Shown: piece after piece, positions 16,075 to 61,947 of the stretch
Layout: each line of letters opens with the position of its first letter
Numbering within the stretch: position 1 is the stretch's first letter
Origin: an uncultured virus (IMG/VR IMGVR_UViG_3300034407_003469)
Taxonomy: Duplodnaviria > Heunggongvirae > Uroviricota > Caudoviricetes
DNA: 64,000 nt
Strand: one strand, 5' to 3'
Virus record (IMG/VR): IMGVR_UViG_3300034407_003469
Program-made: the position numbers and the translations under genes
Notes under the pieces: generated by a model
The model's input: the letters and a program-made list of their open reading frames with translations, nothing else
The model's database searches: none
What the model was told of the DNA's origin: nothing

Positions 16075-16485
16075 TTACTTTAATAATAAGTAACCAACTA
16101 AAGCAATTCCAACATAAGGTAAATATGACATCATTTCGTTAGTAGGAGTTGGTACACCATTACCTACTGAACTTGAACCTGTATTCATACCTGTGTTTAA
16201 ACCATTACCCATAGGAATTTTATCTCCACAAGGGTCTTTGTCCATTGTCCAATTATCAGGACATACATATTGTCCATCTGCTCTCCATTTTACTGAAAAC
16301 CTATTTTGAATTACACCTCCTGCATCACATCTGTTACAAGTGATTGATTGAGTTCTTGGAGAAACAGGACTTTCCTCGTTAGTTGTGGAAATATTTCTGT
16401 CAGCATCTATAACCATTGTATTTTCTCGTGGTGCAACAGGAATACCTGTATTTCCCACCTTATTAAACCATAATTCTTTATCCAT
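16075..16485 (-). CDS. Cys-containing protein with C-terminal TM
   Basis: ELWFNKVG motif, 4 Cys, C-terminal TM. Confidence 0.6.
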   Translation of the reverse strand: MDKELWFNKVGNTGIPVAPRENTMVIDADRNISTTNEESPVSPRTQSITCNRCDAGGVIQNRFSVKWRADGQYVCPDNWTMDKDPCGDKIPMGNGLNTGMNTGSSSVGNGVPTPTNEMMSYLPYVGIALVGYLLLK

Positions 16486-16490
16486 TTTTT

Positions 16491-16661
16491 TTATTTTAAT
16501 CCAAATAATTCATCTATTGACTTACCTTCATAATATTTATCTTTTAAATAACTGTCATAAATTTTAATAGCAAAAAGTATTGCAAGTATATTAAATGCTA
16601 CTTGTAGGTCAAAAGGGGCACTCCCTCCTGCTTTCATTTTAGCGATACTTTTATGACTCAT
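16491..16661 (-). CDS. Small membrane protein (56 aa)
   Basis: Hand translation MSHKSIAKMKAGGSAPFDLQVAFNILAILFAIKI...; TAATG coupling. Confidence 0.55.
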   Translation of the reverse strand: MSHKSIAKMKAGGSAPFDLQVAFNILAILFAIKIYDSYLKDKYYEGKSIDELFGLK

Positions 16662-16879
16662 TAACTTTCTTCATTTATATTCCAATTTTCCTCTGTCTTA
16701 ATAGGAATTTTATTAGATTTTTTCATTTGCTTTAATTCAGCTTTTACTAATTTAATTCGTAAATAATCCAAATAAGTTTTAACTGCATAAGAAACACCAA
16801 TTGCTACTGCAATAGCACTTCCTACCGTTAATATTTTTGCTAAATGCCCTTCTTCTAAATAATCTTCCCACTTCGCCAT
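16661..16879 (-). CDS. Membrane protein
   Basis: Central TM helix. Confidence 0.55.
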   Translation of the reverse strand: MAKWEDYLEEGHLAKILTVGSAIAVAIGVSYAVKTYLDYLRIKLVKAELKQMKKSNKIPIKTEENWNINEES

Positions 16880-16882
16880 CTT

Positions 16883-16981
16883 CTAATTGTTTCTTGTAAC
16901 AGTAATACTTTTAGAAATATACTCTTGGTATAGCATATAACCCCCATATCCTGCTAATGCATATTTAATTATTGTAAACAT
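16883..16981 (-). CDS. Small membrane protein (32 aa)
   Basis: MFTIIKYALAGYGVYMLYQ resembles the N-terminus of 16987-17280. Confidence 0.55.
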   Translation of the reverse strand: MFTIIKYALAGYGGYMLYQEYISKSITVTRNN

Positions 16982-16986
16982 AGTAA

Positions 16987-17280
16987 TTATGAACAAGAAC
17001 CACAAGCATTTGTCATATCAGTAGTTTGCCACTCTGTACCTTGCAGTCCACTCATATTTTGAAATACTCCTCCTTCTTGCCACATTGTTTCTCTGTTTCT
17101 TCCTGCTTGTTGCCATTCTGTTCCTGTAAAATTAGTATTAGCATCTTGCCAAGCAGTACCTCTAATACCATCTCTTTGCCAAGCCGTACCTGAATAGTTT
17201 GACATAGCAGTCATTCTTTCATATAATTTATAGGCTCCGAATCCTGCAAGTCCATAAATTGCGATTGTTTTTAAATCCAT
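16987..17280 (-). CDS. Membrane-anchored protein with five TxWQ repeats
   Basis: GTAWQ x2, GTEWQ x2, ETMWQ. Confidence 0.6.
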   Translation of the reverse strand: MDLKTIAIYGLAGFGAYKLYERMTAMSNYSGTAWQRDGIRGTAWQDANTNFTGTEWQQAGRNRETMWQEGGVFQNMSGLQGTEWQTTDMTNACGSCS

Positions 17281-17317
17281 TTTATTTTTTTTTAATTAAT
17301 TATTATTTAGTTACTAT

Positions 17318-17864: not shown

Positions 17865-17872
17865 ATTTCTAA

Positions 17873-18256: not shown

Positions 18257-18276
18257 TTTATTTAATTTAAATTAAT

Positions 18277-19782: not shown

Positions 19783-20304
19783 CTATCTAATCGCCATATA
19801 TGTAACTACACCTATAACTAAAGCACCTACTCCAATTGCAACATTGGTTAAAGTATCATCTTCGGTTTTTCTCATCATACTTTTCGCATTTGCTTCGTTA
19901 AACATATTTTGAATATTACTTTCAAATTCAGATGATTGTGCTTCTAATTTTTTATCACTACAATTATTTTCATCCCAACTATTTTTAAAGTCTATTCTTC
20001 TATTTTCATATGCTCTTGCATTTCTTGTTACAACTCTTGATTTAGAACCACTATTAGCATTTCTTGTTAATGCTTTGTCTATACTTCCAATAGTATTATC
20101 TATTTCATCACAATCATCTGTCATTGGATAGGCTTTTTTTACCTCATTCCATTTTTTATCATATCTTTCTTGTTCAGCTTTCTTTTTACTCCAAGTAATA
20201 CCAAATAACCCCGGGTGATTCAAGAAATTCTCATCTGAATAAGATGAAATATCTTCATCAAAATTTCCAAAAGTTCTTGCATTTACATCGCTATCTATAA
20301 ACAT
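19783..20304 (-). CDS. Membrane protein with NHPGLFGITWS motif
   Basis: Paralogue of 32239-32970; C-terminal TM. Confidence 0.65.
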   Translation of the reverse strand: MFIDSDVNARTFGNFDEDISSYSDENFLNHPGLFGITWSKKKAEQERYDKKWNEVKKAYPMTDDCDEIDNTIGSIDKALTRNANSGSKSRVVTRNARAYENRRIDFKNSWDENNCSDKKLEAQSSEFESNIQNMFNEANAKSMMRKTEDDTLTNVAIGVGALVIGVVTYMAIR

Positions 20305-20309: not shown

Positions 20310-20528
20310 TTATTTTAATTTATTATATAACATATAAGCAATAATACCTAATGTCAAACCTCCTGCTAATTGTAAAACTGCTTTACCCATACTGCTTTCT
20401 TCGTTTTTAAAGTCATCTAAACTACCTGCTACATTAGAAAAGTTTCTTTTTTTACATTTACCACCACATTGACATTTACCTCCGTTTTGACACGGGTGAT
20501 ACTCTTTATTTTTACAATTACAACCCAT
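20310..20528 (-). CDS. Cys-rich (metallothionein-like) small membrane protein
   Basis: GCNC..C....CQC...C, FSNVAG, C-terminal TM. Confidence 0.55.
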   Translation of the reverse strand: MGCNCKNKEYHPCQNGGKCQCGGKCKKRNFSNVAGSLDDFKNEESSMGKAVLQLAGGLTLGIIAYMLYNKLK

Positions 20529-21379
20529 TATTTAGATAAAAATGCTCCAAAGAAAATACCTGCTATTGCAGATAATAACATTACCTCTTGGTTTTCGTTT
20601 TTAGATACTTTAGGCATAACTCCTGTTTTATCACAGTCTTTAGCTTCTTTTCTCAAAACACCTTTTTCTTTCTTCAGTTTTTTAATTTCTTTTTCTTTAT
20701 CTCTTCTCAATTTGACATATCTATCTCTGTCTATTTTACCTTCAACTGAACCTCCACGAGCCTTTTTTCTATCTCCTTTATCCATTGTAGATACATCTGC
20801 ATACTTTCTTCTTCCCATAGATTTTTCCATTCCTGCACTTTCATCCATTCTGCTTTTTAAAGATTGAGATTTTTTACCTTTATTTCTCTCTCCTATGCTT
20901 TCCCTATCTTTATCATCATATCCTTGAGTTTTTCCACCGTGCTTATATTCCATTTCTCCACCTTCCATAAGCATCATTCTATTATTTTTATCCATTGTAC
21001 TTACACTTGAATATGCTCTACGACCAAGAGTTTTATTTCCTGCTTTGCTTTCATCTCTTCTATCCTTTAATGATTGTGAATATCCACTCTCTCTTCCTAA
21101 TCTACTTCCTAAATCTTCATTTAATTTATCATTATAACCTTGGGTAGTTCCACCATCAGCCATTTTTTTCTTTTTTCTGTCATCTGCAATTTTTTCCATA
21201 TTTAATGCAAATTGACCTCGCCTACGAGTTGTTTCAGAATAATCATTTGGATTATTTTTAACTTCCATTGCAAAATCGTGAACTGACATACCCGCTCTTT
21301 TCGCTTGTTTTGTAAAAGCACCTTTTGTGCCTTTTTTATCCATTTCTTTATCTACTGCTTGAATCCAATTATCTGCCAT
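20528..21379 (-). CDS. Basic modular protein with xxGG linkers and a duplicated QGY...STMDK module
   Basis: MADGG, LMEGG, YKHGG, KARGG; two ~50-aa repeats; C-terminal hydrophobic helix. Confidence 0.65.
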   Translation of the reverse strand: MADNWIQAVDKEMDKKGTKGAFTKQAKRAGMSVHDFAMEVKNNPNDYSETTRRRGQFALNMEKIADDRKKKKMADGGTTQGYNDKLNEDLGSRLGRESGYSQSLKDRRDESKAGNKTLGRRAYSSVSTMDKNNRMMLMEGGEMEYKHGGKTQGYDDKDRESIGERNKGKKSQSLKSRMDESAGMEKSMGRRKYADVSTMDKGDRKKARGGSVEGKIDRDRYVKLRRDKEKEIKKLKKEKGVLRKEAKDCDKTGVMPKVSKNENQEVMLLSAIAGIFFGAFLSK

Positions 21380-22116: not shown

Positions 22117-22647
22117 TTAATTCCATTTACTACTATTGAAAGTTAAAAAAGGTTCAATTGCATACATTTGACCTGAATAACCTCCTCCTGTTGGTATTAC
22201 CTCTGTAATACTATTATCATTTATATTGCTACTTGTTGAGGTAGGTGAATTTTCATAATTTTTAATAAATAAATTATAATATTCTTCACTTACTTCTCCA
22301 AAAACTGCATTTGGAAAACTTTTCTTAAATTCTCCGAATGGTGACTGCTCATTTTTTACTGCATTTAAAGTTAAAGGTCCAAATTTACCATCAGTATCTA
22401 ATCCATAACCTGATGATTCATTTAAAAATACTTGTAATGCTTTCACTCTATTTCCACCACTATTTAACTTTAATGGGAAAGAGTTATTTTGATATATTAT
22501 ATTTAATACTCTATCAAATATATTATTATCATAAGTAACGGTATTATTTCCATTACTTCCTTTTCTTCTTTTTAATAAAACATAAATACCTAATCCTGCC
22601 CCTATTAGACCAAGAGATATTAAAGATATTTTAAGTGTTTTATTCAT
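22117..22647 (-). CDS. Membrane-anchored peptidoglycan-binding protein
   Basis: FPLKLNSGGNRVKALQ..LN...DGKFGPLT..AV. Confidence 0.7.
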   Translation of the reverse strand: MNKTLKISLISLGLIGAGLGIYVLLKRRKGSNGNNTVTYDNNIFDRVLNIIYQNNSFPLKLNSGGNRVKALQVFLNESSGYGLDTDGKFGPLTLNAVKNEQSPFGEFKKSFPNAVFGEVSEEYYNLFIKNYENSPTSTSSNINDNSITEVIPTGGGYSGQMYAIEPFLTFNSSKWN

Positions 22648-22656: not shown

Positions 22657-23562
22657 TTAAAACCAAAGTTCTCCACTAAAACCTGAACCTGAAAAAGCAC
22701 TACTACCTGTGGAGTCTAAACAAGGCTCATTAAATTGTGTTCCTGTTGGGCAAACAGGAGATGTCTGTCCACTATAAGTATTTAAAGTAGAAGGACACAT
22801 TTGTTGCCAACAATTCATTGTATATGTATTAGGTGTACCTGATGAACTTGGAATTGCAGGGACAAATGGTTGTTCAGGTACAAATGGAGTAGGAGGTATG
22901 GCAGGTGAACCTGTTGTTGCAGGAATAATACAATTAGGCTCAACCTCTGTCGTTCCTGTTGGGCAAGTTGGTGAACTCAACCCTGTAAAAGTAGAAATAG
23001 TTGAAGGACAATTATTATCCCAACAATTCATTGTGTACTCACACGGACAACCTTGTGTAGGATTTGTTCCTGAATTTGTTAATCCAACATTTAAGCCTAA
23101 ATTATTATTTGGATTGTAGGCAGGAGTTGGTGGTATGGCAGGAACACCCGGAGTTGCAGGAATAGATGGAGAATAAGGAATTGCAGGAAACCCTTGAGAT
23201 GGTGGAATACCTGCTTGTAAGGAAACTATACCTGATGATAATCCATTTGAATTATTTAAGTTAGGAATACTTGCACCTCCTCCACCTACTGAACCTGTAC
23301 CTAATCCTGTTGATACCGAACCCGATGTAGAAGAGCCTCCTGTTGTAGAAGAGCCTCCTAAAGTTCCCGAACCTACTCTACCACCACTTCCACCTCCCGT
23401 AGTTCCTATTTGATTAAAGAACTCATCTTGGGAGATATAGGAGTTAAATCCATCTTGGTCGTTATTTGGAACAAAACTTAATCCTGATTGATTGAAATAC
23501 TCATCTTGTGAAATGTAAGAGTTAAATCCATCTTGGTCGTTATTTGGTATAAAATTTTCCAT
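22657..23562 (-). CDS. Low-complexity Gly/Pro/Cys repeat protein
   Basis: Two 26-aa N-terminal repeats, PAIP repeats, two YTMNCW..CP modules. Confidence 0.6.
   Translation of the reverse strand: MENFIPNNDQDGFNSYISQDEYFNQSGLSFVPNNDQDGFNSYISQDEFFNQIGTTGGGSGGRVGSGTLGGSSTTGGSSTSGSVSTGLGTGSVGGGGASIPNLNNSNGLSSGIVSLQAGIPPSQGFPAIPYSPSIPATPGVPAIPPTPAYNPNNNLGLNVGLTNSGTNPTQGCPCEYTMNCWDNNCPSTISTFTGLSSPTCPTGTTEVEPNCIIPATTGSPAIPPTPFVPEQPFVPAIPSSSGTPNTYTMNCWQQMCPSTLNTYSGQTSPVCPTGTQFNEPCLDSTGSSAFSGSGFSGELWF
23411..23553 (-). repeat. 78-bp tandem duplication (PNNDQDGFNSYISQDE.FNQ)
   Basis: Near-identical DNA units at period 78. Confidence 0.75.
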
Positions 23563-25423: not shown

Positions 25424-25927
25424 TTAACTTCTTTTCAATTTATTTAATAACTCTGTTGTTGTTGCTGATACATCAATCGGTAAATTATTAATACTTACTA
25501 AACCTGCTTTTATGTCTATTGTACCTCTTAATGTTGCCGTACTTTGCGTATTATCAACAAAATTTTCTATAAGAGATGATATTCCTAAAGATAAAGTTAA
25601 GTTTCTATCTGCATTACCTATAAAAGGTATTATTACTGATTGTTTGGCAGGTATATCATATGTGGTACTATCTTCAGCTTTAGCAACAACCTGTCCATCT
25701 ATTAATACATCAAATCTATATGCTTTTATCTTTATATTAAAATCAGATGTGTTGGTAAATCTCATCTTTACCTCTAATTTAGCAATATTATTTTGGGTTC
25801 CTAAATAAGTAAAACCTAATATCTCATATCCGAATGAAGATAAAAGTTTTTTCTGTCTTACTAAATAAAGAATAGTTCCTATTGTAGCAAGACCTAAAAC
25901 ACCAAAAGATAATTGCTTTATGCTCAT
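25424..25927 (-). CDS. LEA_2/WHy-like domain membrane protein
   Basis: TM, then RFTNTSDFNIKI..Y.FDV.IDG...IPAKQS..IP. Confidence 0.6.
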   Translation of the reverse strand: MSIKQLSFGVLGLATIGTILYLVRQKKLLSSFGYEILGFTYLGTQNNIAKLEVKMRFTNTSDFNIKIKAYRFDVLIDGQVVAKAEDSTTYDIPAKQSVIIPFIGNADRNLTLSLGISSLIENFVDNTQSTATLRGTIDIKAGLVSINNLPIDVSATTTELLNKLKRS

Positions 25928-26607
25928 TATTTAGATTTAATAGCTAAATATCCCAAACTCACTACAACTCCTGCTACAAGCACCCAACCTACTATTTTAC
26001 CTGTGGTTCCTAAACCCGATTCTGTGACTGTTGTCGTAGTTTGAGGTGTAGGATTAAGATTAGGGTCAAATTGAGGAGCATAATTAGGTGAATTAGGATT
26101 ATTAATATTTAATCCTGCTTGTAGTCCTTGATTAGCATTAGTCAAAATATTACCTATTGTATTTATGGTATTTTGTTTTTTTGTATCTATTTCGGCTTGT
26201 GTTAAACAAGCATTATTCCTACTTCTTGTCCAACCCATTGGTTGTTGACCTGTTGCAAATCGTTGAGAAATAGGAAAACCATTTTCACAAGTATAATATG
26301 TACTCATTCCATCTCTATCAAACAAATTAGTAAACCAATTTCCCCCTCCTGATTGATTATTCCATCCTGTTTGTTCTGTTCCATCATTACTCCATTGACT
26401 GCCATCAAAACTATTATATGCAGGTGGATAATCATATACTCTATCATTAGCATCAAAATGTTCAGGAGTTCCATTTAATCCATCTCCTTGGTCAACCGAA
26501 TTAGCTTGTGTATCAGGATTTCCTCTTAATCCATAAGGATTAGGCATAGGTGGATTGAAAATAAAATTTCCATCATCCCCCATAAAATTAAAATATTTAT
26601 CTTTCAT
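25927..26607 (-). CDS. Disordered protein with C-terminal TM
   Basis: YFNFMG, FDGSQWSNDG, WNNQSG motifs. Confidence 0.6.
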   Translation of the reverse strand: MKDKYFNFMGDDGNFIFNPPMPNPYGLRGNPDTQANSVDQGDGLNGTPEHFDANDRVYDYPPAYNSFDGSQWSNDGTEQTGWNNQSGGGNWFTNLFDRDGMSTYYTCENGFPISQRFATGQQPMGWTRSRNNACLTQAEIDTKKQNTINTIGNILTNANQGLQAGLNINNPNSPNYAPQFDPNLNPTPQTTTTVTESGLGTTGKIVGWVLVAGVVVSLGYLAIKSK

Positions 26608-26613: not shown

Positions 26614-27291
26614 TTATTTTTTTATTATATAATATATAGCAATAGCACCTAAAACCATCGCAATTGTTTTGTCTATACACTTTTCTTCTCCTTGAATTTT
26701 AAAAGGTAAAGCATATTGATTACTTCCACAACCACTTTGATTAGGCATTGTTGGTTTTGGTAGTGGGCTATTAGGGTCAATAGAGCCTACATCATTAGCA
26801 ATTTCTTCTTGTGTAGCATTTTCCCTTGGTAATCCACTACTTATACCCATACTTGGTCGGGTAGCCAAACTATCCTCTCTTAAAACCCTTTGTCCAAAGG
26901 TTCTTGATGAAGGGTCATTATCTGTAACATAAATCATCCCTTTTGGTGGTCTTGGATAATCTCTTACATAAAAGCTATCAGGCTTATCACCTGATTGACT
27001 AAACCATAAATCTGTTTGTACTCCTGAAAACCTTCTGTAAGGTGTTGGTGTTAAGCCCCCTGTTCTTCTTGAACTAATTCTACGACTTGGTGCCATTGCA
27101 CCTGTTCCACCAACTGCTCTTACATTTCTTGGATTTACAGGTCCTATTCTTGATACTGCATCTGCATTTGGAATACATACATTTCCACCTGCTACACAAT
27201 CAACACACAAACAATTATTATCTATTTCGGTTAACCTATTACATTTATTAGTACAACCACCACTTCTTCTACTACCTCCTATTAAAGACAT
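26614..27291 (-). CDS. Cys-rich N-domain protein with C-terminal TM
   Basis: C.C.DCV.GG..C.PN shared with 32981; DLWFSQSG. Confidence 0.6.
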   Translation of the reverse strand: MSLIGGSRRSGGCTNKCNRLTEIDNNCLCVDCVAGGNVCIPNADAVSRIGPVNPRNVRAVGGTGAMAPSRRISSRRTGGLTPTPYRRFSGVQTDLWFSQSGDKPDSFYVRDYPRPPKGMIYVTDNDPSSRTFGQRVLREDSLATRPSMGISSGLPRENATQEEIANDVGSIDPNSPLPKPTMPNQSGCGSNQYALPFKIQGEEKCIDKTIAMVLGAIAIYYIIKK

Positions 27292-27307: not shown

Positions 27308-27673
27308 TTATTTAACATATTTTTGATAAGCCATTAGACCAACTACACCTGCAACTACACCTATCCAATAGTTTTTTTGTGAGAATATACTTCCATATCC
27401 TTCACTTGAACCATCCATACCTACAAATACTTGGTCACGAGTTCCATCATTAGACCATTGTGGCTGAACATTTAAAGGAGTTTGTCCACTTCCCTCAAAT
27501 CCACTATAAGTTCTACTCATAGGTATAAAATTATCTGATTTTGTACTACATCTATATCCTCCACCATCACAAGAAAAACATCTATTTGGATGACATACAC
27601 CACAAGTATCACAACCTTCTCCTACTACTTGATGAGTTCTATTTGAAACCATTCTATTATTTCTTAAAGCCAT
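27308..27673 (-). CDS. Cys-rich protein with C-terminal TM
   Basis: 6 Cys; QWSNDG..QVF.G.DG. Confidence 0.6.
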   Translation of the reverse strand: MALRNNRMVSNRTHQVVGEGCDTCGVCHPNRCFSCDGGGYRCSTKSDNFIPMSRTYSGFEGSGQTPLNVQPQWSNDGTRDQVFVGMDGSSEGYGSIFSQKNYWIGVVAGVVGLMAYQKYVK

Positions 27674-32970: not shown

Positions 32971-32980
32971 AATTTTTTTT

Positions 32981-53740: not shown

Positions 53741-56700
53741 TTATTTTACTCTTATTTTTAATAGTGCCATTGAATTATTGAATTTACCAATTAATTCCTC
53801 AAGAGTTTCACCTCTTTGTTCTGCTTTTAATAATTGGCTTTCTTCCTCTTTTATTCTATTTTCTATTTTCCATTTTTTCTCACTATTCAATTCTTTTTGC
53901 CCCTCAATTACTTTGTTATTAGCTTTAGTGATTAAAATATCAATATCATTAAAATTATAACCCTCTTGAGTAACATCATTTTTAATTTGATTTTCAATTA
54001 AGTAAAAATAATTAGACATTATTCTTTCGTTTTCTGTACCTGTTAAAAATAAATTTACTTGTGTAGATATTGAATCATAACTGAATCTGATATTTTCATC
54101 TGAAAGATTATCCGTTATCACCTTTACTATCTGTTCTCCTATTATGGAATCTTTATTAACCATTCTCATACGGCTATTTCTTTCTGTTGGAGATACATCT
54201 AAAATATTTTCAAGAGTTCCACGATTATTTTTAATTAATTTTCTTACAGCATCACCTACTACATTAACATCAACCATTTGAGAGTCAGCAGTTAAAATTA
54301 AATCAGGATTTGTAAACTCTATCATTCCATCCTTTTCTTGTTGTTCTACTACTTTCATAGCTTCTTCAATGCTTACAAATACAGGCTTATTATTTTCTTT
54401 CCATTGTCTACCCCTACCTCTACTATCTTTTTTGAAATTATATAATATGTCTACATCTAATTTGTCTTTTTCAACAAGAGCAATTTTCCTCTTTTCTTCA
54501 AATTTAACTAATTGATAGAGTTTATTCATAAGAGTTACATAACCATCAAATAACATTTTAACCTCTCCATATTTGTCCTTTATAGTTTGCAACTTACTTT
54601 TTTCATCAGAATATTTTGCGACTTTACTATTTAATTCATCAACTTTATCTTGCCAAGCTAAATCGGTTAATTGGTCTATGTCAGTAATAATATTTCTTAT
54701 TCTTTCTTTCGCATCAATTGTATATTGAGTTTTGTTTAATTCATAAACCCCTGCTTCAAGCATTTTTTTAATCTCACCTATTTTGGTTTGCAGTTTAGAA
54801 TATACAAATGCATCAATACTATCAATACCAAGAACATATACTATTCTAACAAATTCCCACATATTATTTTGTCGCCAAATTCTACCTTCTAATTGCATTG
54901 CGTTAGATGGAGAAAAATCACTATCTAATACATATAAAGTATGGGCTCTTCTATTTAAATCTATTCCTTCTTTTATTGCTGATGAGCCAAGTAAAATCTT
55001 TATTCTTCCATCATTAAATTTATCTCTAATGTCCTCCCTTTTTCCTATTGTTTTATCTTTTCCTGTTGTACTATCTATAAGTATAGAACCATTTTCATCC
55101 GTAGCTTTGACTGTTCCACTCATACCACCTGTAATAATACCAATGTTTTCTTTAGTTAAAGTTACTAATTTGTCTTTGATATTGTCATAATATGTTATCT
55201 TTTGGTCTACTATGTAAGTTTTAATTAACTCATATAGATTGTAATAATGACCACCATATTTCATACTTTTTCCTTTATTAATATACATTATTTGACCCCC
55301 CACTTGTCTATCATTTACTCCTCCTTCCTTGGAATCATATTTAATAGTATTAAGTGCACATTCTATTGCATATTTAATTTTAGGACTATTTTCTACAAAA
55401 TTCTTTGCTGATTTTGATATGTCATTAGGGTCTAACGGGAAATTTTTTAACAAATCATTTGGTACATCACCTGATTTATCACATTTAAGTAAATAAGGAG
55501 ATATAACACACATTTGCCCAAATCCTTGACCCACAATAGCACGAGCCATTCTTACTTCACTTTTACTATTTGCAGATAAATCCATATCTTCATAGTTACT
55601 ATCATACAACTCTTCATTTTCCTGCATATCCTTTATAGTTTCAGGGTCAAATAAAGCACTATCTACTAAACTTTGTTTTTTAGCTATTCTTTTATCTTCA
55701 GGATAAGTTGTTCTTAAATCTACTAATAAGCTACGGGCTGACCTTAAATATTCTTCCCATTCGTTACTTCCCTCTTCTTCTTTTTTAGCTTTTTTAAGTA
55801 AATCCTCTACCTCTTTAATGTAATCCTTAACTTCATCATTCAAAAATTCCACCTCTCCTGTTTCTTTATCTACTTGAATTGCATCACCATAATTTGGACA
55901 ATATTGAAATGGTATATCTATTTTACCCTCTACATATTGTGCTATCTTACTTATTATTTCTTTTTGCACAGGACTTAATGGAACATAACTTGATACATCT
56001 TGTAATTGAGGTGCCCATTGTACTGATGATGTATTTGCTCCTGCTTGATTATTTCCTCCTGTACCATCTTGTGGGATATAATACTTTAATGGTCTTTTTG
56101 CTTCTATTATTTTATCTGAAACTTTAAAATTTGCCATTGACTTAATAAAATTTGACATAGCTGAAGAGTTATAATAGCTTTGTATTTCAGGAAATAATCC
56201 AAAAGTTTGTCTATGGGTGATATTATATCTCCACTCTTCTTTAACAAAAGTTACAAAAAAGTCCCATACAGACATTATATTGCTTTCTTTCATTTTATCC
56301 AAATTAGTCATACCAAAAACAGAAAACATTTGAAATATATTATCAGTAAATGGTGTTGCTGACATTAATATAGTATTATTTACTCCTTTGTTTTCTTCTT
56401 TTGCCTGTATTTCAAATATTAGAGATATTAAATTAGCAGGTGCAGTAGTTAAACTTCCTTTACCTGATGAATAATATTTCAATCGGTACTCACTTTCTTG
56501 TATTCCCGTTTTAGTTGGTATGTTATAATTATTTGGATTATGATAAAGAGTTCCCTCCTCAACATATATACCCTTTTTTGAATTTACACTATCCCCATCA
56601 GGCAATACATTTAAGGTAGCATTAGCCCTCATTGTAGGTAATAATGTAAAATCTAAATTAGTTCTTCTTCCTCTTGTTAAATCTACTCTTGACAAAGTAT

Positions 56701-59700
56701 GTTCTCTTGGTTTACTAATCAAATTATTAAAATTATGAATTTCATCAACCGTTATGCCATCTATATTAAGTTTCTTTAACGATAAAGGTAAATTAGATAA
56801 TTTATCATAAAATCTATTTGTAGATGGATTTACATATCTAACATCTTCAACATTTTGCACATACTTACGGGCTTTTAAATTTGCTTTGTCATCGGCTCTA
56901 AATCTTTTAATAGCTTGGTGACTACACAATATTATTTTATTAGGCTCCATTACTTCTTTTCTATATTGACCTAAAACATCAATCAACATACCTTCAATTT
57001 GTTTTAATAAAACTGTAACAGTACCCGTATTTTTATTATCTATTGGATTAAAAAAGTTTTTTGATAATAAGTTTTCAGTTTTTTTAATATCATTGATACC
57101 CTTTTGAGTCAATACTCCTTCCCAAGGTTGAGTGCTTTGTTTAATTCTATCTGCCTGTTCTTTAGTTACTACCCCATCTTTTAAAGCCTCATCTAAATTA
57201 GTAATCCAACCCTTTTGAGGATAATCTCCACTAAATAATTTATCTAAATCATTTTTATTGGTTTTATAAAATTCTTGAACAGATTTTGGATATTCAGATA
57301 TTTTAACTTTATTTTCTCCAACAAAATCCTGTTTCTGATATCTATAACCTGATTGGTATCTATCGTATTGAGAGTTTACCTTATCATATATAACTTGTGC
57401 TGATTTATTTACCTTTTCTACTATATTATCAATAGCTTCTTGTGTATCTTCATTGCCTTCATCATATATTTCAGGTATTTTCAAACCTATATTTAATGAT
57501 AAATTATCAAACCAATCGTTAAAATCTGAATCTCTTAATGAATTAGAAAATCTGCTTTCATTAGGCAAACCTCTTTTATCTTCAGGTAAAAAAGATGGTC
57601 GCCCTGCGGGTAAGTTTTTCAATTGGTCTTTAGCCATTTCTAAAACTCCTTTGTCTGCTTCATTTCTTGTATCTTTTCCTTTTGGTTTTGATTTACCTTT
57701 CCATTTTGCTATAATTAATAATTGAGAAGGTGTGTATTTTTTTAAACCTTTTACCCCTCCCTCTTTATCACTACCTATTAATATATTAGCTGATGCATTA
57801 CCAAATTTGATTATATCAACTGCATCTGTTATATTATTTCTTTTATTTCTTTCTAAAGTTTGCCAATTTGATAATAATCCTAAAGTTCCTGTTGTATCTC
57901 TTCCAATTATTTCATCTGCAAATTTTTCATATACTTGATTAGGTGTGAATACAATAGTTCGTGAACTTTCACCTGTTAACATCATATGGGACATCATAGC
58001 GATAGATGTCGTTGTTTTACCAAAACCTACTTCGTGTGCTAAAAGACCTGAATTTTTGTTTGCTATGGCAAATTTCATTCCCTCAACTTGTGCATCTCTT
58101 AAATTAAATAGGAATGGATTAGGCAAAGACCCAAACCATCTTGAATGTTCACAAAATATTGGGAATTTAGTATAATCAGCAATAGCCATATTGTTATATG
58201 TTTTATTCCAAACTTCTTCAATATTTGCTCTATAATATGGTGTAAGTTGAATTTTACAAAAAGTAGTAAATAAATTATTACCCTCTAAAATTATTTGACT
58301 TTCTAATTTTTTATATTTATCAGTAATTACATTGAATATTCTTTTGCCCTCGGCTTCTGTAATTGGAGTAAATAATTGTTTTGCCTTTATAGTATTTTTT
58401 GGGTTTTTTGGGTCAGGCATATTTACCTCAACTGCTACTTTTTTCTTATTTTCAACTAAACCTATTTTTATTAAGTTTTCTCTACTTTGTTGTGTTAAAT
58501 TACTAAATCCATATGGAGATTTAGGATTATATACATTTGTTAGTGTAAAGGTTTTTTGATTATTTCTTTTTAAGTAAGGAATAAACTGAAGAGGACAAGG
58601 TATATTATCACCTTCATCAGCAATCTTTTCAAATTTTGGCATTATGTGTTTCTTAATAAATGCTCCTGATGACATAGGGAATATATACCCATCAACTAAA
58701 TAAAACTCATTTTGTTTTAAATATGGGCTACTAATAAAATCCACTCCTTGACCAAATACCACAAACTCATAGAATTTTTTCAAATGATTATTAGTTAAGT
58801 TTAAAGGATTGTTTAATTTGAAATCATCATACTGTTGCTTTTTTGACATACCACCTAATGCAATAGGCTTGTATAAACTTTCTGCCTCTACTTCAATAGT
58901 TGAAATACGGGTCTTACCATCTCTAAATACACTATAATCCTTACCTATTCTGCCTACAAATCCCTCATCATTAGTAAAAAATATAGGATTATGTATATTA
59001 ACAATTAAGTTTTTTTCAGGATTTTTATCTCCAAATGTTAATCTATCAGGCTTATTATTATTTAATAAAGCATTTTGATTATCAACAATTTCTAATCCTT
59101 TTGACTCACCATAGTATAGTATTATATTATCTTCAAGTTCTCTATTTAAATAATTTAATTTTTTGTAAACATCTCCTGATGCATATTCATAGCTATAAGT
59201 GTATTTCTGCTCAACTATCTGTCCTGAATCTTTTTCAAAACTTAATCTTTCTATACATATAAGACCTTTCTCTATAAGTATCGGCAACAGTTTATCAGAA
59301 AAAATAAAATAATCAACTCCTAAAATTCTTTGGCTTAATTTTCTAAAATAAGAAGAGTTGTCTTTTGAACTACCTCCTTTTGTAACAAAATATGCTAAAA
59401 CTTCTTCAATATTCATATTTTGATTATTCATCCAAAAAGTTTCTCTTATATCATATATATAAAAGTAATCAGGGTTAGACCATCTACCTTTGCCAACTTT
59501 ATCTTTAAAATAAGTGCCTTCAGATGAATCTAAAGACCATTTAGGGTTCTTTTTAGTTTTCCATTGCAATTGCCCGTTTACACTTACTTGGTCGGCATAT
59601 GTAAATATAAAAGATGCTATATTATCTATTAGTAACTTATAAAACAATGGGCTTTCTTTTATATCTACTAATTTAGATTGTCTTATTAATGCATCTTGCA

Positions 59701-61129
59701 ATGCTTCTGACTCTTCTATAATATCATCTGATAAAACTATTTCTCTTACATTTTGCTCATCAAATAATTTACTCTTTTGTTGTAAAGATAATGATGGCTT
59801 ATATAATTCTGCATATACAATATGTTCGCAATTAGATAATCTTCCTGAACTTACTCCTTTAGCATATCCATATTGCTCTTTATTAGAATTTACAAAGTAT
59901 GCTTCATCTGATTTAGGGTTAAAATATATGTCAATGGTATCAGAATCCAAATCCATATATGTAGCACAAGTCAAAGCAAAATATAAATCATTAGACCTTA
60001 TATTTATAAAAACTTCGTTTATTTTGTCAAAAAACAATTTAATTGATATAGCTTTACTTCCTTTAGAACTTTGTTTTAATGCAGGATTTTCAGAAAAATT
60101 TGTATCGTAAAAATTCCTTGATAAAATATTAAAAGGTTCTACATTTTTTAATATGTCTTTACCTCTAATACCTGAAACTCTCACATAATCATTATTAGTG
60201 TCTAAATTTTTTACAAATTCTGCTTTATCAGATATTTTTTGTAAGTCGCCTTGACTACATTTAGACAAATCTGATACAGGTTTAAATTCATATTTTGTTG
60301 CATTACTATTAATATAATTCAAACTATACCCACCGTTAAAATAAGAGTTATCTACACTTGTTGATATAGAAAGGGGAGAGCAGATGTAATCTTCAGGTAG
60401 TAGTACAGATGTTCTATCATTAATTATATATCCTTCAGCTTTATTAAATTTATAGTTAATCTTTACACTATTTAAATCTTTATTTGCAACGGCATCAAAA
60501 AACTTGGATGTTCTTTCAATTGGTAGTTGTTCTAAATTTAAATTTTGAGGACATAATTTATACATCAAAAGTCCCATAATATCTACATCTAATGCTGAAG
60601 AATCATTTAAAAATCTGTAATCAGGATTTGAAAAAGAACTTACAACTCCATTTGGCAAGGATGAAAAGTTAATGTTGGTATATATTTTGTCAAACATATA
60701 AACACTTTGACTTTGAAAAGCAACATTCATAACCTGAAAATTAATTAAGTTAGTTAATGCATCAACTAATTTAGCATAAAAAGAATAAGGCTTTCTATAT
60801 AATCTTTCAATAAACTTTTTAACATCTGTGTCCAACTTTCCTTTCGGTGTTAATATTCTATCTCTAAAATATTCTAATTTATCTTTTCCTTGAGAATCGG
60901 CTTTTCTTTTTAATTCTTTCCAATAAATACTATTTACCCCAAATGTTCCATTTATTCTACCATCTCTTCCTTTTAAATATGGACTTTCATTCCCATATAT
61001 AAAGTCAGGATTTTTTGCAACATACTTGGCAATTATGAACATACCTTCATCTTTTAACAATGAATTATCATCAATTGTAGTATTTAATTTGCTTATTTGC
61101 TCTCCTATGTAATCTAATATATTTGCCAT
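53741..61129 (-). CDS. Giant SNF2/SF2 helicase, DarB-like
   Basis: AHEVGFGKT, VDEIHNFNNL, SATPFTDN, FNDGRIKILLGS..IKEGIDL, QLEGRIWRQ. Confidence 0.8.
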   Translation of the reverse strand: MANILDYIGEQISKLNTTIDDNSLLKDEGMFIIAKYVAKNPDFIYGNESPYLKGRDGRINGTFGVNSIYWKELKRKADSQGKDKLEYFRDRILTPKGKLDTDVKKFIERLYRKPYSFYAKLVDALTNLINFQVMNVAFQSQSVYMFDKIYTNINFSSLPNGVVSSFSNPDYRFLNDSSALDVDIMGLLMYKLCPQNLNLEQLPIERTSKFFDAVANKDLNSVKINYKFNKAEGYIINDRTSVLLPEDYICSPLSISTSVDNSYFNGGYSLNYINSNATKYEFKPVSDLSKCSQGDLQKISDKAEFVKNLDTNNDYVRVSGIRGKDILKNVEPFNILSRNFYDTNFSENPALKQSSKGSKAISIKLFFDKINEVFINIRSNDLYFALTCATYMDLDSDTIDIYFNPKSDEAYFVNSNKEQYGYAKGVSSGRLSNCEHIVYAELYKPSLSLQQKSKLFDEQNVREIVLSDDIIEESEALQDALIRQSKLVDIKESPLFYKLLIDNIASFIFTYADQVSVNGQLQWKTKKNPKWSLDSSEGTYFKDKVGKGRWSNPDYFYIYDIRETFWMNNQNMNIEEVLAYFVTKGGSSKDNSSYFRKLSQRILGVDYFIFSDKLLPILIEKGLICIERLSFEKDSGQIVEQKYTYSYEYASGDVYKKLNYLNRELEDNIILYYGESKGLEIVDNQNALLNNNKPDRLTFGDKNPEKNLIVNIHNPIFFTNDEGFVGRIGKDYSVFRDGKTRISTIEVEAESLYKPIALGGMSKKQQYDDFKLNNPLNLTNNHLKKFYEFVVFGQGVDFISSPYLKQNEFYLVDGYIFPMSSGAFIKKHIMPKFEKIADEGDNIPCPLQFIPYLKRNNQKTFTLTNVYNPKSPYGFSNLTQQSRENLIKIGLVENKKKVAVEVNMPDPKNPKNTIKAKQLFTPITEAEGKRIFNVITDKYKKLESQIILEGNNLFTTFCKIQLTPYYRANIEEVWNKTYNNMAIADYTKFPIFCEHSRWFGSLPNPFLFNLRDAQVEGMKFAIANKNSGLLAHEVGFGKTTTSIAMMSHMMLTGESSRTIVFTPNQVYEKFADEIIGRDTTGTLGLLSNWQTLERNKRNNITDAVDIIKFGNASANILIGSDKEGGVKGLKKYTPSQLLIIAKWKGKSKPKGKDTRNEADKGVLEMAKDQLKNLPAGRPSFLPEDKRGLPNESRFSNSLRDSDFNDWFDNLSLNIGLKIPEIYDEGNEDTQEAIDNIVEKVNKSAQVIYDKVNSQYDRYQSGYRYQKQDFVGENKVKISEYPKSVQEFYKTNKNDLDKLFSGDYPQKGWITNLDEALKDGVVTKEQADRIKQSTQPWEGVLTQKGINDIKKTENLLSKNFFNPIDNKNTGTVTVLLKQIEGMLIDVLGQYRKEVMEPNKIILCSHQAIKRFRADDKANLKARKYVQNVEDVRYVNPSTNRFYDKLSNLPLSLKKLNIDGITVDEIHNFNNLISKPREHTLSRVDLTRGRRTNLDFTLLPTMRANATLNVLPDGDSVNSKKGIYVEEGTLYHNPNNYNIPTKTGIQESEYRLKYYSSGKGSLTTAPANLISLIFEIQAKEENKGVNNTILMSATPFTDNIFQMFSVFGMTNLDKMKESNIMSVWDFFVTFVKEEWRYNITHRQTFGLFPEIQSYYNSSAMSNFIKSMANFKVSDKIIEAKRPLKYYIPQDGTGGNNQAGANTSSVQWAPQLQDVSSYVPLSPVQKEIISKIAQYVEGKIDIPFQYCPNYGDAIQVDKETGEVEFLNDEVKDYIKEVEDLLKKAKKEEEGSNEWEEYLRSARSLLVDLRTTYPEDKRIAKKQSLVDSALFDPETIKDMQENEELYDSNYEDMDLSANSKSEVRMARAIVGQGFGQMCVISPYLLKCDKSGDVPNDLLKNFPLDPNDISKSAKNFVENSPKIKYAIECALNTIKYDSKEGGVNDRQVGGQIMYINKGKSMKYGGHYYNLYELIKTYIVDQKITYYDNIKDKLVTLTKENIGIITGGMSGTVKATDENGSILIDSTTGKDKTIGKREDIRDKFNDGRIKILLGSSAIKEGIDLNRRAHTLYVLDSDFSPSNAMQLEGRIWRQNNMWEFVRIVYVLGIDSIDAFVYSKLQTKIGEIKKMLEAGVYELNKTQYTIDAKERIRNIITDIDQLTDLAWQDKVDELNSKVAKYSDEKSKLQTIKDKYGEVKMLFDGYVTLMNKLYQLVKFEEKRKIALVEKDKLDVDILYNFKKDSRGRGRQWKENNKPVFVSIEEAMKVVEQQEKDGMIEFTNPDLILTADSQMVDVNVVGDAVRKLIKNNRGTLENILDVSPTERNSRMRMVNKDSIIGEQIVKVITDNLSDENIRFSYDSISTQVNLFLTGTENERIMSNYFYLIENQIKNDVTQEGYNFNDIDILITKANNKVIEGQKELNSEKKWKIENRIKEEESQLLKAEQRGETLEELIGKFNNSMALLKIRVK

Positions 61130-61131
61130 AT

Positions 61132-61374
61132 TTAATCGTTCAATGTTACCTCAATAGAAGAAATAGCTTCGCCTATTGAAAATACCCCCATACCACTATA
61201 AAGGTTGTTTATAATCGTTTCAATCAATTCTATTTTACTATTATCATTTTCTATTTGCATAGTTACATTAGGATATTTATTTACATCTAAACTTCCTAAT
61301 GCATTTACTATATTAGAAACAATTTCTTTTTTTTGTTTAATACTTTTTATACTATATAGTTTTGGTAATTCCAT
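61132..61374 (-). CDS. Hypothetical protein
   Basis: 80-aa ORF in operon. Confidence 0.5.
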   Translation of the reverse strand: MELPKLYSIKSIKQKKEIVSNIVNALGSLDVNKYPNVTMQIENDNSKIELIETIINNLYSGMGVFSIGEAISSIEVTLND

Positions 61375-61375
61375 A

Positions 61376-61627
61376 TTATCTTAAATACTTTTTTTCTATT
61401 TTACCCTCATCAGTTAATATCCAAAACTTATTATCTCCTGCACTACAAAGAGGTAATCTTGTGTTATATTCAAGATTAAAATTTATTTTTTTTATTGAGG
61501 TTTCTCCACCACCTAATAGTTCTACTTCTTCATATCCAAGTAATTTATCTGCACCACTATCTCTTAAAAATCCTATTGTTAGATTTTCAGAATTTACTAT
61601 TTGAAAGTTTGGTCCTATGTAAGCCAT
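61376..61627 (-). CDS. Hypothetical protein
   Basis: 83-aa ORF in operon. Confidence 0.5.
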   Translation of the reverse strand: MAYIGPNFQIVNSENLTIGFLRDSGADKLLGYEEVELLGGGETSIKKINFNLEYNTRLPLCSAGDNKFWILTDEGKIEKKYLR

Positions 61628-61638
61628 TTTATTATTTT

Positions 61639-61947
61639 TTAATTACAATTATATTCTTTTTTATTTTTTACTCTTGTTAAATAGTCTATTGCTGAATAAA
61701 TTCTATCTACTTCTGCTTGACTATTTGCAAAATTTAATTTACTATATAAATTCTCAAGTTCTAACTTTAAATATCTACAATGTGAAGATTTAACAGTAAT
61801 TTTAATTGATTTAGGCACTTTATTTTCATCAAATGCGTGTCTATAAACAAATTCTCCTGAAGGTGTAAATTTATCTATTGTATCTCCTAATGGCATTTCA
61901 GATGCCCCTTCTTCATCTCCTGATTGATTAAACCAAAGTTTTTTCAT
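61639..61947 (-). CDS. Hypothetical protein with LWFNQSG motif and Cys-bracketed helical hairpin
   Basis: MKKLWFNQSG; C...C helical segment. Confidence 0.55.
   Translation of the reverse strand: MKKLWFNQSGDEEGASEMPLGDTIDKFTPSGEFVYRHAFDENKVPKSIKITVKSSHCRYLKLELENLYSKLNFANSQAEVDRIYSAIDYLTRVKNKKEYNCN

Follow-up and report, generated by a model that had tools for sequence, protein, structure and literature searches.

The internal proteins of phage T4 are directed to the growing particle by a capsid targeting sequence (CTS), which the prohead protease gp21 cleaves off at (L/I)-x-E. In adenovirus, many virion precursors contain adenain sites of the type (M/I/L)XGX-G and (M/I/L)XGG-X. The cargo-loading peptides of encapsulins and the encapsulation peptides of bacterial microcompartments are terminal, sit on flexible linkers of variable length and dock cargo on the inner face of the shell. 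In PRD1, capsid proteins assemble on a phage-specific membrane patch that contains the phage membrane proteins (PMC6356626). The excerpts of this review considered here give no sorting signal for the membrane proteins, and the word 'protease' is absent from the whole review; the excerpts leave unexplained how viruses with an internal membrane choose their membrane proteins and how the vesicle is coupled to the shell.

The window analyzed here, a stretch of 64,000 nucleotides, derives from an uncultured marine bacterial virus that is probably tailless and lipid-containing. The size of the virus is about 70-100 kb. It belongs to a widespread marine group, with 840 homologues of its capsid candidate retrieved at E ≤ 0.001. 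tblastn searches with the capsid candidate and the ATPase gave no relative among 50,697 records of cultured and deposited phages, and literature searches yielded no publication dealing with this virus group or with a motif of the kind described below. The predicted membrane helices in 27 of 42 ORFs of the module at 16075-36887, together with a conserved gene for a PAP2 lipid phosphatase, point to an internal lipid membrane. The capsid-protein candidate (36162-36887; minus strand, as are the motif copies and candidate genes given below) comprises 241 aa with a beta-rich core starting near residue 56. Its structure model is poor (pLDDT 55.1), and the best structural matches, namely AlgX (Z 6.8) and the capsid proteins of FLiP (Z 6.3), faustovirus (Z 6.0) and phiCjT23 (Z 5.3), fall below the noise mark of 8. 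Foldseek comparison of this model and of the zincin model described below with the PDB yielded nothing at E ≤ 0.001. A 439-aa paralogue (10588-11907; hhalign probability 97.8%, E 8e-13) is possibly a second capsid protein. The candidate packaging ATPase (39759-40571, 270 aa), a core gene product, is a P-loop protein with weak similarity to HerA/DUF87, which does not reach the cut-off (E 5.1e-4); this sub-threshold match recurs in 14 of 21 orthologues (best E 4.2e-4), and a profile search against PDB sequences returned P-loop noise only. Terminase_6N and Phage_capsid matched none of the scanned window ORFs, none of three relatives (~100 kb, rated complete) and not the one MAG, and 11 of the 12 core and large proteins were without an NCBIfam match.

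An earlier note on this DNA had described an aromatic-x-N-x-x-G tag in more than 20 proteins of the virion module, including the N-terminal extension of the capsid candidate. All motif strings that it listed were found in the translated minus-strand ORFs of the respective genes, while the additional 'YSN variants' in ORFs 18691, 19236 and 28265 (ORFs are named by their first coordinate) lack the Gly and are unsupported. The motif was analyzed with regular expressions, position counts and family clustering. Using the strict pattern [FYW].[NS]..G and 300 shuffles of each protein as composition control, 24 matches were counted in 17 of the 43 ORFs (6510 aa) of the module at 16075-36887. Shuffled proteins gave 8.88 ± 2.96 matches, and a count of 24 was reached by 0 of 300 shuffles, so that the suspected excess over composition was borne out. 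It is confined to the module, as the other 50 minus-strand ORFs (12628 aa) were at chance level (12 matches versus 9.46 ± 2.97; 69 of 300 shuffles reached 12). The reversed pattern occurred nine times in the module at an expectation of 8.90, and LWF[NS] was found six times versus 0.02 expected. These counts exclude six minus-strand ORFs, each nested or situated within the plus-strand block (548-703, 3446-3610, 26304-26474, 30567-30767, 36575-36754 and 47580-47732), and the three plus-strand genes. YSSPFG in ORF 28265, YGSIFG in ORF 31701 and YISDEG in ORF 33619 seem to be chance matches or regular positions of a fold, and four of the 24 matches are tandem or paralogous copies. YSGFEG (ORF 27308) and FAYATG (ORF 35586) match a looser pattern only, yet are conserved in orthologues. 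A realistic number of carriers is about 19 module proteins plus the product of ORF 61639, which falls short of the 'more than 20' of the earlier note. Asn occupies position 3 in 18 of the 22 curated copies. The proposed acidic context was confirmed, since D or E is present among the four residues ahead of the motif in 17 of these 22 copies. The consensus is (D/E)-x-[FYW]-hydrophobic-[N>S]-x-x-G with D-L-W-F-N-Q-S-G as its strongest form. Codons for Ser, Gly and Phe vary synonymously from copy to copy, showing that the motif is one of protein sequence and ruling out a DNA-level repeat or promoter-like element.

Only three of the 22 curated window copies start within the first six residues, and the rest are internal. 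The N-terminal tags are WFNKVG at residue 6 of ORF 16075-16485 (16453-16470), YFNFMG at residue 5 of the tail-anchored ORF 25927-26607, which also contains YNSFDG and WNNQSG (all three in 26347-26595), and WFNQSG of ORF 61639-61947 (61918-61935), which is located outside the module. The 61639 family keeps this tag unchanged in 8/8 homologues, while the linker that follows differs by about 60 residues. ORF 61639 lies two small ORFs upstream of the gene for a 2462-aa DarB-like helicase. Two truncated window copies are C-terminal. The extreme C-terminus of ORF 27692-28150 reads ...EDRLWFN without Gly (27695-27709) and is ...DRIWFN or ...DQMWFND in orthologues, again lacking Gly; a complete YYNQSG is present in the same ORF (28055-28072; motif region 27695-28072). 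ORF 22657-23562 terminates with ...GELWF (22660-22671) and has, at its N-terminus, a tandem 26-residue duplication containing YFNQSG and FFNQIG (23404-23499); no orthologues of this ORF could be defined, as matches were of low complexity only.

Tandem duplications that copy the motif had been reported before and were recovered in ORFs 22657, 31701, 32239 and 16987. ORF 31701-32234 contains D-L-W-F-N-Q-N-G and D-L-W-F-N-Q-S-G in tandem (31899-31964); its orthologues have one to two copies, and residues L106, W107, F108, N109, Q110 and G112 are invariant in 12/12 sequences. The tail-anchored ORF 32239-33012 exhibits YKNFDG, two copies of FTGFDG and D-L-W-F-N-H-P-G (32662-32961), and the WFNHPG position is kept in 24/24 orthologues. 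Its paralogue, the tail-anchored ORF 19783-20304, carries FLNHPG (20209-20226), and 25 of 29 orthologues retain the strict motif. ORFs 19783 and 32239 share N-H-P-G-L-F-G-I-T-W, and ORFs 25927 and 32239 share N-F-D-G-S-Q-W. Repeats of F-D-G-S-Q-W-A-N-D-G are found in the latter two. FQNMSG (17047-17064) resides in ORF 16987-17280 together with G-T-x-W-Q repeats.

Two Cys-rich, tail-anchored proteins carry FSNVAG (20424-20441; ORF 20310-20528) and WFSQSG with a looser YRRFSG (26989-27039; ORF 26614-27291), respectively. The loose variant YSGFEG maps to 27491-27508 (ORF 27308-27673), and FLNANG to 31127-31144 (ORF 30893-31252; strict motif in 19/22 orthologues). YSNMSG (33095-33112) directly precedes the C-terminal membrane helix of ORF 32981-33277, and FRSFDG (33411-33428) is located ahead of the membrane helix of ORF 33297-33605. 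In the tail-anchored ORF 34882-35586, S-R-D-A-F-M-N-Q-T-G (35221-35238) is positioned at the junction of a folded N-terminal domain and a low-complexity linker and is kept in 28/37 orthologues. The loose FAYATG of the tail-anchored ORF 35586-36056 (35817-35834) has the conserved form F-[AS]-[YN]-A-T-G-R-T-P. As the earlier note had claimed, the N-terminal arm of the capsid candidate is tagged as well, with FMSANG (36816-36833) and YLNAMG (36744-36761), the second about 8 residues ahead of the first core strand. An arm motif is present in 112 of 115 full-length homologues, and the N-terminal 24 residues are well conserved with Y7, F8, A11 and G24 being invariant.

Relatives of the virus were retrieved by an alignment-based scan of viral contigs; a single-protein scan returned none. 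In distant relatives, whose capsid candidates are 30-48% identical, 426 motifs were counted downstream of the capsid gene at an expectation of 195, and 127 upstream of it at an expectation of 131; counts from relatives are not phylogenetically independent. At least half of the members carried the motif in 19 of 62 downstream families, versus 7, 6, 1 and 9 families for four scrambled patterns, and 7 of 64 upstream families had the motif. The 19 motif-bearing families are unlinked by BLAST. The motif is kept in relatives. Identity in orthologues amounts to 0.56, 0.63, 0.56 and 0.80 at positions 1, 3, 4 and 6 and to 0.19-0.47 in the flanks; judged from these alignments, the motif is a conserved island within variable linkers. 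The terminal Gly is its most conserved residue, and the two residues behind the Gly are the least conserved. Different flavors interchange at a single orthologous position (YSNMSG, LWFNQSG, FSNWAG and WRGFDG); at the YSNMSG site of ORF 32981, orthologues have YNNMSG, YSGFEG, LWFNQSG, LWFNQAG, FSNWAG or WRGFDG. Asn can be replaced by Ser, Arg or Gly, as in FRSFDG, YRRFSG and YSGFEG. Tandem copy number differs among orthologues, one orthologue gained an additional N-terminal tag, and new copies appear at new positions. The Trp-rich flavor occurs mostly in families confined to the close clade. At the sequence level, these comparisons support a short linear motif that is under selection, occurs virus-wide and is linked to the late module rich in membrane proteins as well as to the capsid candidate's N-terminal arm.

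The distribution of the motif follows membrane topology, which was classified by a simple hydropathy rule. For tail-anchored proteins the ratio of observed to expected motifs was 4.9 in the window, 3.9 in distant loci and 6.7 in close loci, whereas proteins with an N-terminal membrane helix gave 0.4, 1.65 and 1.09, respectively. The motif marks tail-anchored and soluble module proteins and not those with an N-terminal helix. One of the latter carries a peptidoglycan-binding domain, and most of this protein is thus expected on the opposite side of the membrane. Among relatives, 35 of 1450 downstream proteins begin with the motif versus 3 of 1316 upstream proteins.

The explanation that we favor, with a probability of roughly 45%, is that the motif serves as a short linear address or docking peptide at the interface between capsid and membrane. 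The motif resides in flexible segments of the capsid candidate's arm, of many tail-anchored proteins and of a few soluble late-module proteins. Tail-anchored proteins keep most of their mass on the cytoplasmic face of the host membrane, and in a PRD1-type assembly it is this face that comes to lie against the capsid shell as part of the internal viral membrane; all motif copies would hence end up in the narrow gap between capsid and membrane. A single virus-encoded partner may bind every copy. The best candidates for this partner would be the underside of the lattice formed by the capsid candidate, which bears the same peptide on its own arm, and the putative jelly-roll-plus-zincin protein encoded by ORF 33619. 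Binding would concentrate the motif proteins in a membrane patch specific to the virus, link the membrane to the shell and allow adaptors such as the product of ORF 61639 to bring in cargo. The zincin may trim the tag afterwards, as in the case of the T4 targeting sequence. The sequence data show the enrichment, the conservation, the selection at the protein level, the link to topology and the terminal placement, and from them we infer the binding itself, the identity of the partner and the lipid-containing nature of the virus. Docking is favored by the N-terminal tags, the C-terminal ...LWFN ends devoid of Gly, the variable tandem copy number and the restriction to the presumably capsid-facing side of the membrane. 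The high conservation of Gly followed by the two least conserved residues counts against it, since a scissile bond at Gly fits this profile too; the conserved zincin-like enzyme encoded in the same module also speaks against docking. No binding pocket can be indicated, as the capsid-candidate model is poor and its jelly-roll matches are within noise.

In the main rival reading, the motif might instead be a maturation-cleavage site, at which a viral protease encoded by ORF 33619-34452 or ORF 11908-12642 cuts at or beside the invariant Gly of many particle proteins including the capsid arm, resembling the adenovirus protease or the prohead proteases of T4 and phiKZ. We regard this as possible but unlikely. 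The sharp drop in conservation behind the Gly fits such a site, the second arm motif of the capsid candidate is placed at the expected end of a propeptide, and C-terminal ...LWFN ends might imitate a product cleaved behind Asn. The core gene 33619-34452, present in 35 close and 60 distant loci, codes for a beta-sandwich (residues 1-96) followed by a zincin-like domain; its product may act on the motif as receptor and/or protease. H193-E194-x-x-H197, E207 and D211 are invariant in 48/48 aligned sequences. The model is confident (pLDDT 89.5), and the best match of the C-terminal domain was the M48 protease BepA (Z 8.4, rmsd 3.6, 121 residues), a Z score at the edge of the range regarded as common, followed by 3c37, a putative Zn peptidase (Z 6.5), and Ste24 (Z 6.3). 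The protein models as a conserved jelly-roll plus M48-like zincin protein. It is devoid of a predicted membrane helix, which would place it on the same side as the motifs. The peptidase assignment is weakened by the sequence searches, in which no Pfam family at E ≤ 0.01, no NCBIfam family and no PDB-sequence peptidase at E ≤ 1 matched; the profile hit only a chaperonin among PDB sequences (E 0.74), and the lone lead from a protein atlas was a DUF4344 cluster (score 0.87). E207 and D211 follow HExxH by only 10-14 residues, presumably closer than in M48 enzymes. The second candidate, ORF 11908-12642, codes for a membrane-anchored DUF2272/CHAP cysteine-peptidase-like protein, which more simply is a candidate cell-wall hydrolase for entry. 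Neither an S77/S78-type serine prohead protease (Pfam, E ≤ 0.01, 81 ORFs scanned) nor a C5 or C48 cysteine protease (Pfam, scanned ORFs) was matched. Cleavage is also difficult to reconcile with the truncated C-terminal motifs, which are conserved despite the absent Gly, and with the tags at residues 5-6, which would liberate peptides of only about 10 residues. Tandem copies of variable number fit avidity better than cutting, the conserved N-terminal 24 residues of the capsid candidate would be unusual for a discarded propeptide, and the enzyme could act on the host envelope at entry instead. Cleavage can be combined with docking in an 'address, then trim' scheme.

The most elaborate form of the docking reading would be a sorting code of the viral internal membrane, in which the capsid arm docks into a pocket of a neighboring subunit or of a jelly-roll-zincin vertex protein. 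About 20 unrelated tail-anchored proteins and 61639-type adaptors would copy the arm peptide, the shell would capture them with a lipid patch, and the zincin would trim the tags. This detailed scenario is doubtful; if true, it would be the first described signal for the choice of membrane proteins by a membrane-containing bacterial virus.

If the membrane everts into a tube as in PRD1, capsid-facing motifs could reach the periplasm and bind host envelope proteins in the manner of colicin Tol/Ton boxes. The disordered G/S/N/D-rich, Trp-containing segments that harbor the motif (repeats of ORFs 32239, 25927 and 16987) may resemble colicin TolB boxes. Such an entry epitope is improbable, because neither the capsid arm, which bears the motif in nearly all homologues, nor the small soluble product of ORF 61639 is expected to meet periplasmic proteins. 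Slightly less credible still is a covalent modification or cross-link at the conserved Asn, either N-glycosylation by the products of nearby glycosyltransferase-like genes or attachment to the shell through an Asn-Lys isopeptide bond. The preference for Asn, the many copies reading N-Q-S or N-M-S and weak glycosyltransferase-like matches at 40990-42188 would suit this idea. However, the latter are under the curated cut-offs, Asn is substituted in orthologues, and S/T follows two residues past Asn in only about 10 of 24 copies, so that the classical N-x-S/T sequon was rejected as a requirement. Of the three functions considered in the earlier note, cleavage, docking and modification, the anatomy leans to docking, and the zincin-like model keeps cleavage in play.

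Direct pairing of strand-forming motif peptides across proteins, comparable to RHIM and bacterial amyloid signaling motifs, would knit arms and membrane proteins together without a separate receptor and is suggested by the hydrophobic-hydrophobic-N/Q-x-x-G make-up and by the motif's presence on capsid arm and membrane proteins alike, but it is very improbable, as its conserved core comprises only about six residues between variable flanks, fewer than in known amyloid signaling motifs. That the motif has no common function and is a residue of gene duplication within a module rich in G/S/N and aromatic residues is equally improbable, although paralogous and tandem copies are clear (19783/32239, 25927/32239) and three matches look fortuitous, because composition-keeping shuffles still give only 8.9 matches against 24, reversed or scrambled patterns stay at chance, 19 families without a BLAST link share the motif, it forms a conserved island in variable linkers, and further copies emerge at other sites.

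A tag of six residues makes the question of membrane-protein choice testable with peptides, point mutants and pull-downs, for which no cultured host is needed. Such tags could aid the recognition of particle proteins that standard annotation leaves blank in uncultured tailless viruses, and they could serve as loading tags for engineered particles.

Like the T4 CTS, the motif is a short peptide common to otherwise unrelated, presumed particle proteins, in some cases as an extreme N-terminal tag of about 10 residues, and a protease-like gene (33619-34452) is present in the same module. It differs from the CTS in its aromatic-x-N-x-x-G sequence, in its mostly internal and partly C-terminal copies, in its tail-anchored carriers in an apparently tailless virus and in that no S77-type protease was found. 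As in adenain sites, many presumed particle proteins of a virus that is probably of the jelly-roll type have a hydrophobic residue shortly ahead of an invariant Gly; here, however, there is one invariant Gly, the Asn three residues earlier is conserved and the hydrophobic position is aromatic, and adenain is a cysteine protease whereas the candidate is a zincin-like HExxH protein. That protein has H193, E194 and H197 in common with the M48/minigluzincin type, while a sequence-profile match to the family is lacking. The 61639 family has the same tag-linker-domain layout as encapsulin cargo proteins, although the shell would not be of the HK97 fold, the tag also occurs on the arm of the shell protein and on membrane proteins, and the sequences are unrelated. 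In both PRD1 and this virus the capsid gene, in the latter a candidate, is followed by many small membrane-protein genes; unlike PRD1, the virus is about 70-100 kb and without a relative among the phage records searched. Finally, the two paralogous capsid candidates, whose capsid role is presumed, are reminiscent of the P23-77/SSIP-1 type with its two vertical single-jelly-roll capsid proteins.

Matches to the strict pattern [FYW].[NS]..G were compared with per-protein shuffles (300 rounds), with three plus-strand genes and six minus-strand ORFs (nested or outside the block) set aside. The late membrane-protein-rich minus-strand block at approx. 16-37 kb (the module) contained 24 matches in 17 of 43 ORFs versus 8.88 ± 2.96 expected, and none of the 300 shuffles reached 24. 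The 50 other ORFs contained 12 matches versus 9.46 expected, and the reversed pattern remained at chance level in the module (9 versus 8.90). LWF[NS] occurred six times compared with an expected 0.02. These counts bear out the observation of the earlier note that the motif is shared by many proteins of the virion module. Every motif string listed there was present; the additional "YSN variants" in ORFs 18691, 19236 and 28265 (named by start coordinate) lack the glycine and are unsupported. Three of the 24 module matches (YSSPFG, YGSIFG and YISDEG) appear to be chance or fold positions, and four are tandem or paralogous copies. From 22 curated copies the consensus (D/E)-x-[FYW]-[F/L/M..]-N/S-[Q/F/A..]-[S/D/N..]-G was deduced, with Asn in 18 and Ser in four copies. 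As previously stated, the motif usually follows an acidic stretch, and in 17 of these copies at least one of the four residues before it is D or E. Codons for Ser, Gly and Phe vary from copy to copy, which argues for selection at the protein level. Outside the module, the 904-aa protein 48858-51572 (-) has, at residue 516, the string Y-V-N-H-K-G-L-F-G, which resembles the extended tag W-F-N-H-P-G-L-F-G-I of ORFs 32239 and 19783.

Related loci were divided by the identity of their capsid candidate (36162-36887 (-), 241 aa in the window) into distant loci (62 from viral contigs and 7 from genomes; 30-48% identical) and close loci (54 from metagenomes; 74-100% identical). In those distant loci in which the capsid ORF was located by script, the 10 kb downstream of it displayed 426 matches versus 195 expected, with 191 for the reversed pattern, while the 10 kb upstream displayed 127 versus 131. 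ORFs were grouped by BLAST clustering, families of at least five members were scored, and those with the motif in at least half of their members were regarded as carriers. The motif was carried by 19 of 62 downstream families, compared with 7, 6, 1 and 9 for four scrambled patterns, and by 7 of 64 upstream families. With an aliphatic residue at the first position of the pattern, 16 of the 62 downstream families scored as carriers, so that the aromatic residue is perhaps not strictly required.

Conservation in homologues, a check named in the earlier note, was observed as well. The strict motif was retained in 269 of 350 orthologue cells (orthologues at most 90% identical), including three doubtful sites that are likewise conserved. 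Relative to the residue in the window, identity across 14 sites was 0.56, 0.63, 0.56 and 0.80 for positions 1, 3, 4 and 6 of the motif. In the flanks it lay between 0.19 and 0.47, and the two lowest values directly follow the glycine. All 12 orthologues of ORF 31701 have L-W-F-N-Q-x-G without change, with a second copy variably present; D-x-W-[SF]-N-H-P-G of ORF 32239 is found in 24 of 24 orthologues, and S-R-D-x-F-M-N-Q-x-G of ORF 34882 borders on a folded domain. Orthologues of ORF 32981 exhibit YSNMSG, YNNMSG, YSGFEG, LWFNQSG, LWFNQAG, FSNWAG or WRGFDG just before the membrane helix, indicating that these flavours are interchangeable members of one motif class. In the N-terminal arm of full-length capsid-candidate homologues, at least one copy was present in 112 of 115 sequences and two copies in 57. 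One orthologue of 31701-32234, L114:4817-5344 (+) from a related locus, carries an extra N-terminal tag M-R-H-K-Y-Y-N-Q-S-G, which is absent from the other 11 and, judged by sequence, is an example of a tag arising at a new position.

Topology classes were assigned by a simple hydropathy rule. Ratios of observed to expected matches were 4.9 in the window, 3.9 in distant and 6.7 in close loci for tail-anchored proteins, compared with 0.4, 1.65 and 1.09 for proteins with an N-terminal membrane helix. By this rule, the motif therefore appears to mark the cytoplasmic face of the membrane. In PRD1-type assembly, this face would contact the shell (PMC6356626). The N-terminal-helix protein 22117-22647 (-) contains the peptidoglycan-binding domain PG_binding_1, which fits a periplasmic location of its bulk. 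Two further module proteins of this class, 28265-29074 and 30439-30888 (-), exhibit D-G-x-x-G-P/Q motifs that by eye are similar to peptidoglycan-binding segments; all three are devoid of the tag except for the doubtful YSSPFG in 28265. The tail-anchored, highly charged protein 20528-21379 (-) (283 aa) is also without tag; within it, a segment of about 70 residues (...G-G-x-T-Q-G-Y-x-D-K ... S-T-M-D-K...) is duplicated. Tags also occur at termini. The motif lies within the first nine residues of 35 of 1450 downstream versus 3 of 1316 upstream proteins. ORF 27692-28150 ends with ...EDRLWFN (orthologues: ...DRIWFN or ...DQMWFND, without Gly) and ORF 22657-23562 with ...GELWF; a search for orthologues of the latter gave low-complexity hits only.

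The window is AT-rich (about 26-37% G+C) with nearly every gene on the minus strand. Early and enzyme genes named by Pfam and PHROGs include RecT, Mom-like, RusA, an Amidase_3 endolysin, PAP2, a Fe/Mn superoxide dismutase and a 2462-aa DarB-like helicase. Neither terminase nor portal nor HK97-type capsid protein was found in the window with Pfam and PHROGs, and Terminase_6N and Phage_capsid had no match in three complete-rated relatives of ~100 kb and one MAG. In metagenomes, often marine ones, the capsid candidate has 840 relatives (E <= 0.001), and the contigs that carry them reach about 90 kb. A search of 50,697 deposited phage records detected no relative of it or of the ATPase 39759-40571 (-), a candidate packaging enzyme. 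The simple hydropathy rule predicts a membrane helix in 27 of 42 ORFs at 16-36 kb. We therefore regard the source as an uncultured, probably tailless bacterial virus with an inferred internal membrane. A CarboxypepD_reg-like domain (12579-12980) and MAG labels hint at a Bacteroidota host, although contig binning is unreliable. The PAP2-family lipid phosphatase gene 45163-46074 (-) is conserved in 20 of the close loci and 57 of the distant ones, which suggests lipid modification by the virus, consistent with a lipid-containing particle. Further genes are a full-length Fe/Mn-type superoxide dismutase (14972-15643 (-); both Pfam domains well above cut-offs) and a Mom-like DNA modification gene (3723-4391 (-); Pfam Mom, E 7.6e-31) adjoining RecT and PD-(D/E)XK recombination genes. 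On the opposite strand, the collagen-repeat protein 1-1029 (+) (Pfam Collagen, E 3.5e-46) matches phage "tail fiber" PHROGs via its repeats only; it may form a spike or fibre of a tailless particle.

The capsid candidate and the 439-aa protein 10588-11907 (-), encoded 25 kb apart, are paralogues (hhalign probability 97.8%) and bring to mind P23-77 and SSIP-1, viruses with two capsid proteins. Two capsid-like genes (L017 and L062) are likewise present on a distant contig of 102 kb. The model of the capsid candidate is beta-rich but poor (pLDDT 55.1), and among its best structural matches are the jelly rolls of the FLiP, faustovirus and phiCjT23 capsid proteins, whose Z values of 5.3-6.3 are within the noise range. 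Three genes downstream, the core gene 33619-34452 (-) (35 close and 60 distant loci) is predicted to encode a jelly-roll/CBM-like sandwich fused to an M48-like HExxH zincin domain. All 48 aligned sequences retain H193-E194-x-x-H197, E207 and D211. In the confident model (pLDDT 89.5), residues 1-96 form a beta-sandwich resembling carbohydrate-binding and jelly-roll modules (Z about 8), and the C-terminal domain finds its best match in BepA, an M48 protease (Z 8.4 and rmsd 3.6 over 121 residues), ahead of a putative Zn peptidase (Z 6.5) and of Ste24 (Z 6.3). The sequence libraries searched assigned the protein to no peptidase family, and the protein atlas gave a weak DUF4344 lead only (0.87). 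The protein might be a penton-like protein of the vertex that carries a peptidase domain. A second peptidase-like gene, 11908-12642, encodes a membrane-anchored DUF2272/CHAP protein that may simply cut the cell wall at entry. The word "protease" does not occur in a review of membrane-containing phages (PMC6356626).

What stands of the earlier interpretation is a conserved motif selected at the protein level, an island of conservation with varying codons; the functions it offered, capsid docking, maturation cleavage and modification, differ in probability. We tentatively favor a docking or address peptide (probability roughly 0.45), a reading derived from sequence. Copies of the motif would be bound at the capsid-membrane interface by a common viral partner. 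This could be the capsid lattice on its underside, the motif being present in the arm of the capsid protein itself, or else the jelly-roll-zincin protein. The main alternative, less probable, is that the zincin cleaves at the motif. Conservation centred on Gly, a second motif about eight residues before the core in the capsid arm and the presence of a zincin-like enzyme gene agree with cleavage; C-terminal tags without Gly, N-terminal tags of very small size and tandem copies of variable number agree with it less. Docking and cleavage could be combined, address first and trimming after, as in phage T4. A host-binding epitope used at entry is improbable, and a modification or cross-link site about equally so. 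We give very little credit to self-pairing strands, and equally little to recurrence by paralogy and composition.

A docking peptide might also operate outside the module. ORF 61639-61947 (-), which two small ORFs separate from the DarB-like gene, encodes a 102-aa protein beginning with M-K-K-L-W-F-N-Q-S-G; within the region 53741-61947 (-) it is the first of three small ORFs preceding the 2462-aa helicase with DarB-like PHROG matches. All 8 homologues (52-82% identical) have the tag unchanged, followed by a linker that differs by about 60 residues. Such a tag-linker-domain layout is typical of loading peptides. In phage P1, DarB is packaged into the head; by this analogy the protein may be an adaptor loading the anti-restriction protein into the particle, which we regard as a lead only.

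Literature searches turned up nothing on this virus group or on a motif of this kind. The tag would belong with shared particle-address or cleavage tags, carried here by a widespread, undescribed virus group. Among known systems, it comes nearest to the capsid targeting sequence of T4 with gp21, the sites of the adenovirus protease, the loading peptides of encapsulins and microcompartments, and PRD1-type assembly. Each of them differs from the motif described here in sequence, carriers and candidate enzyme; unlike in all four, the carriers are tail-anchored membrane proteins and the capsid arm.
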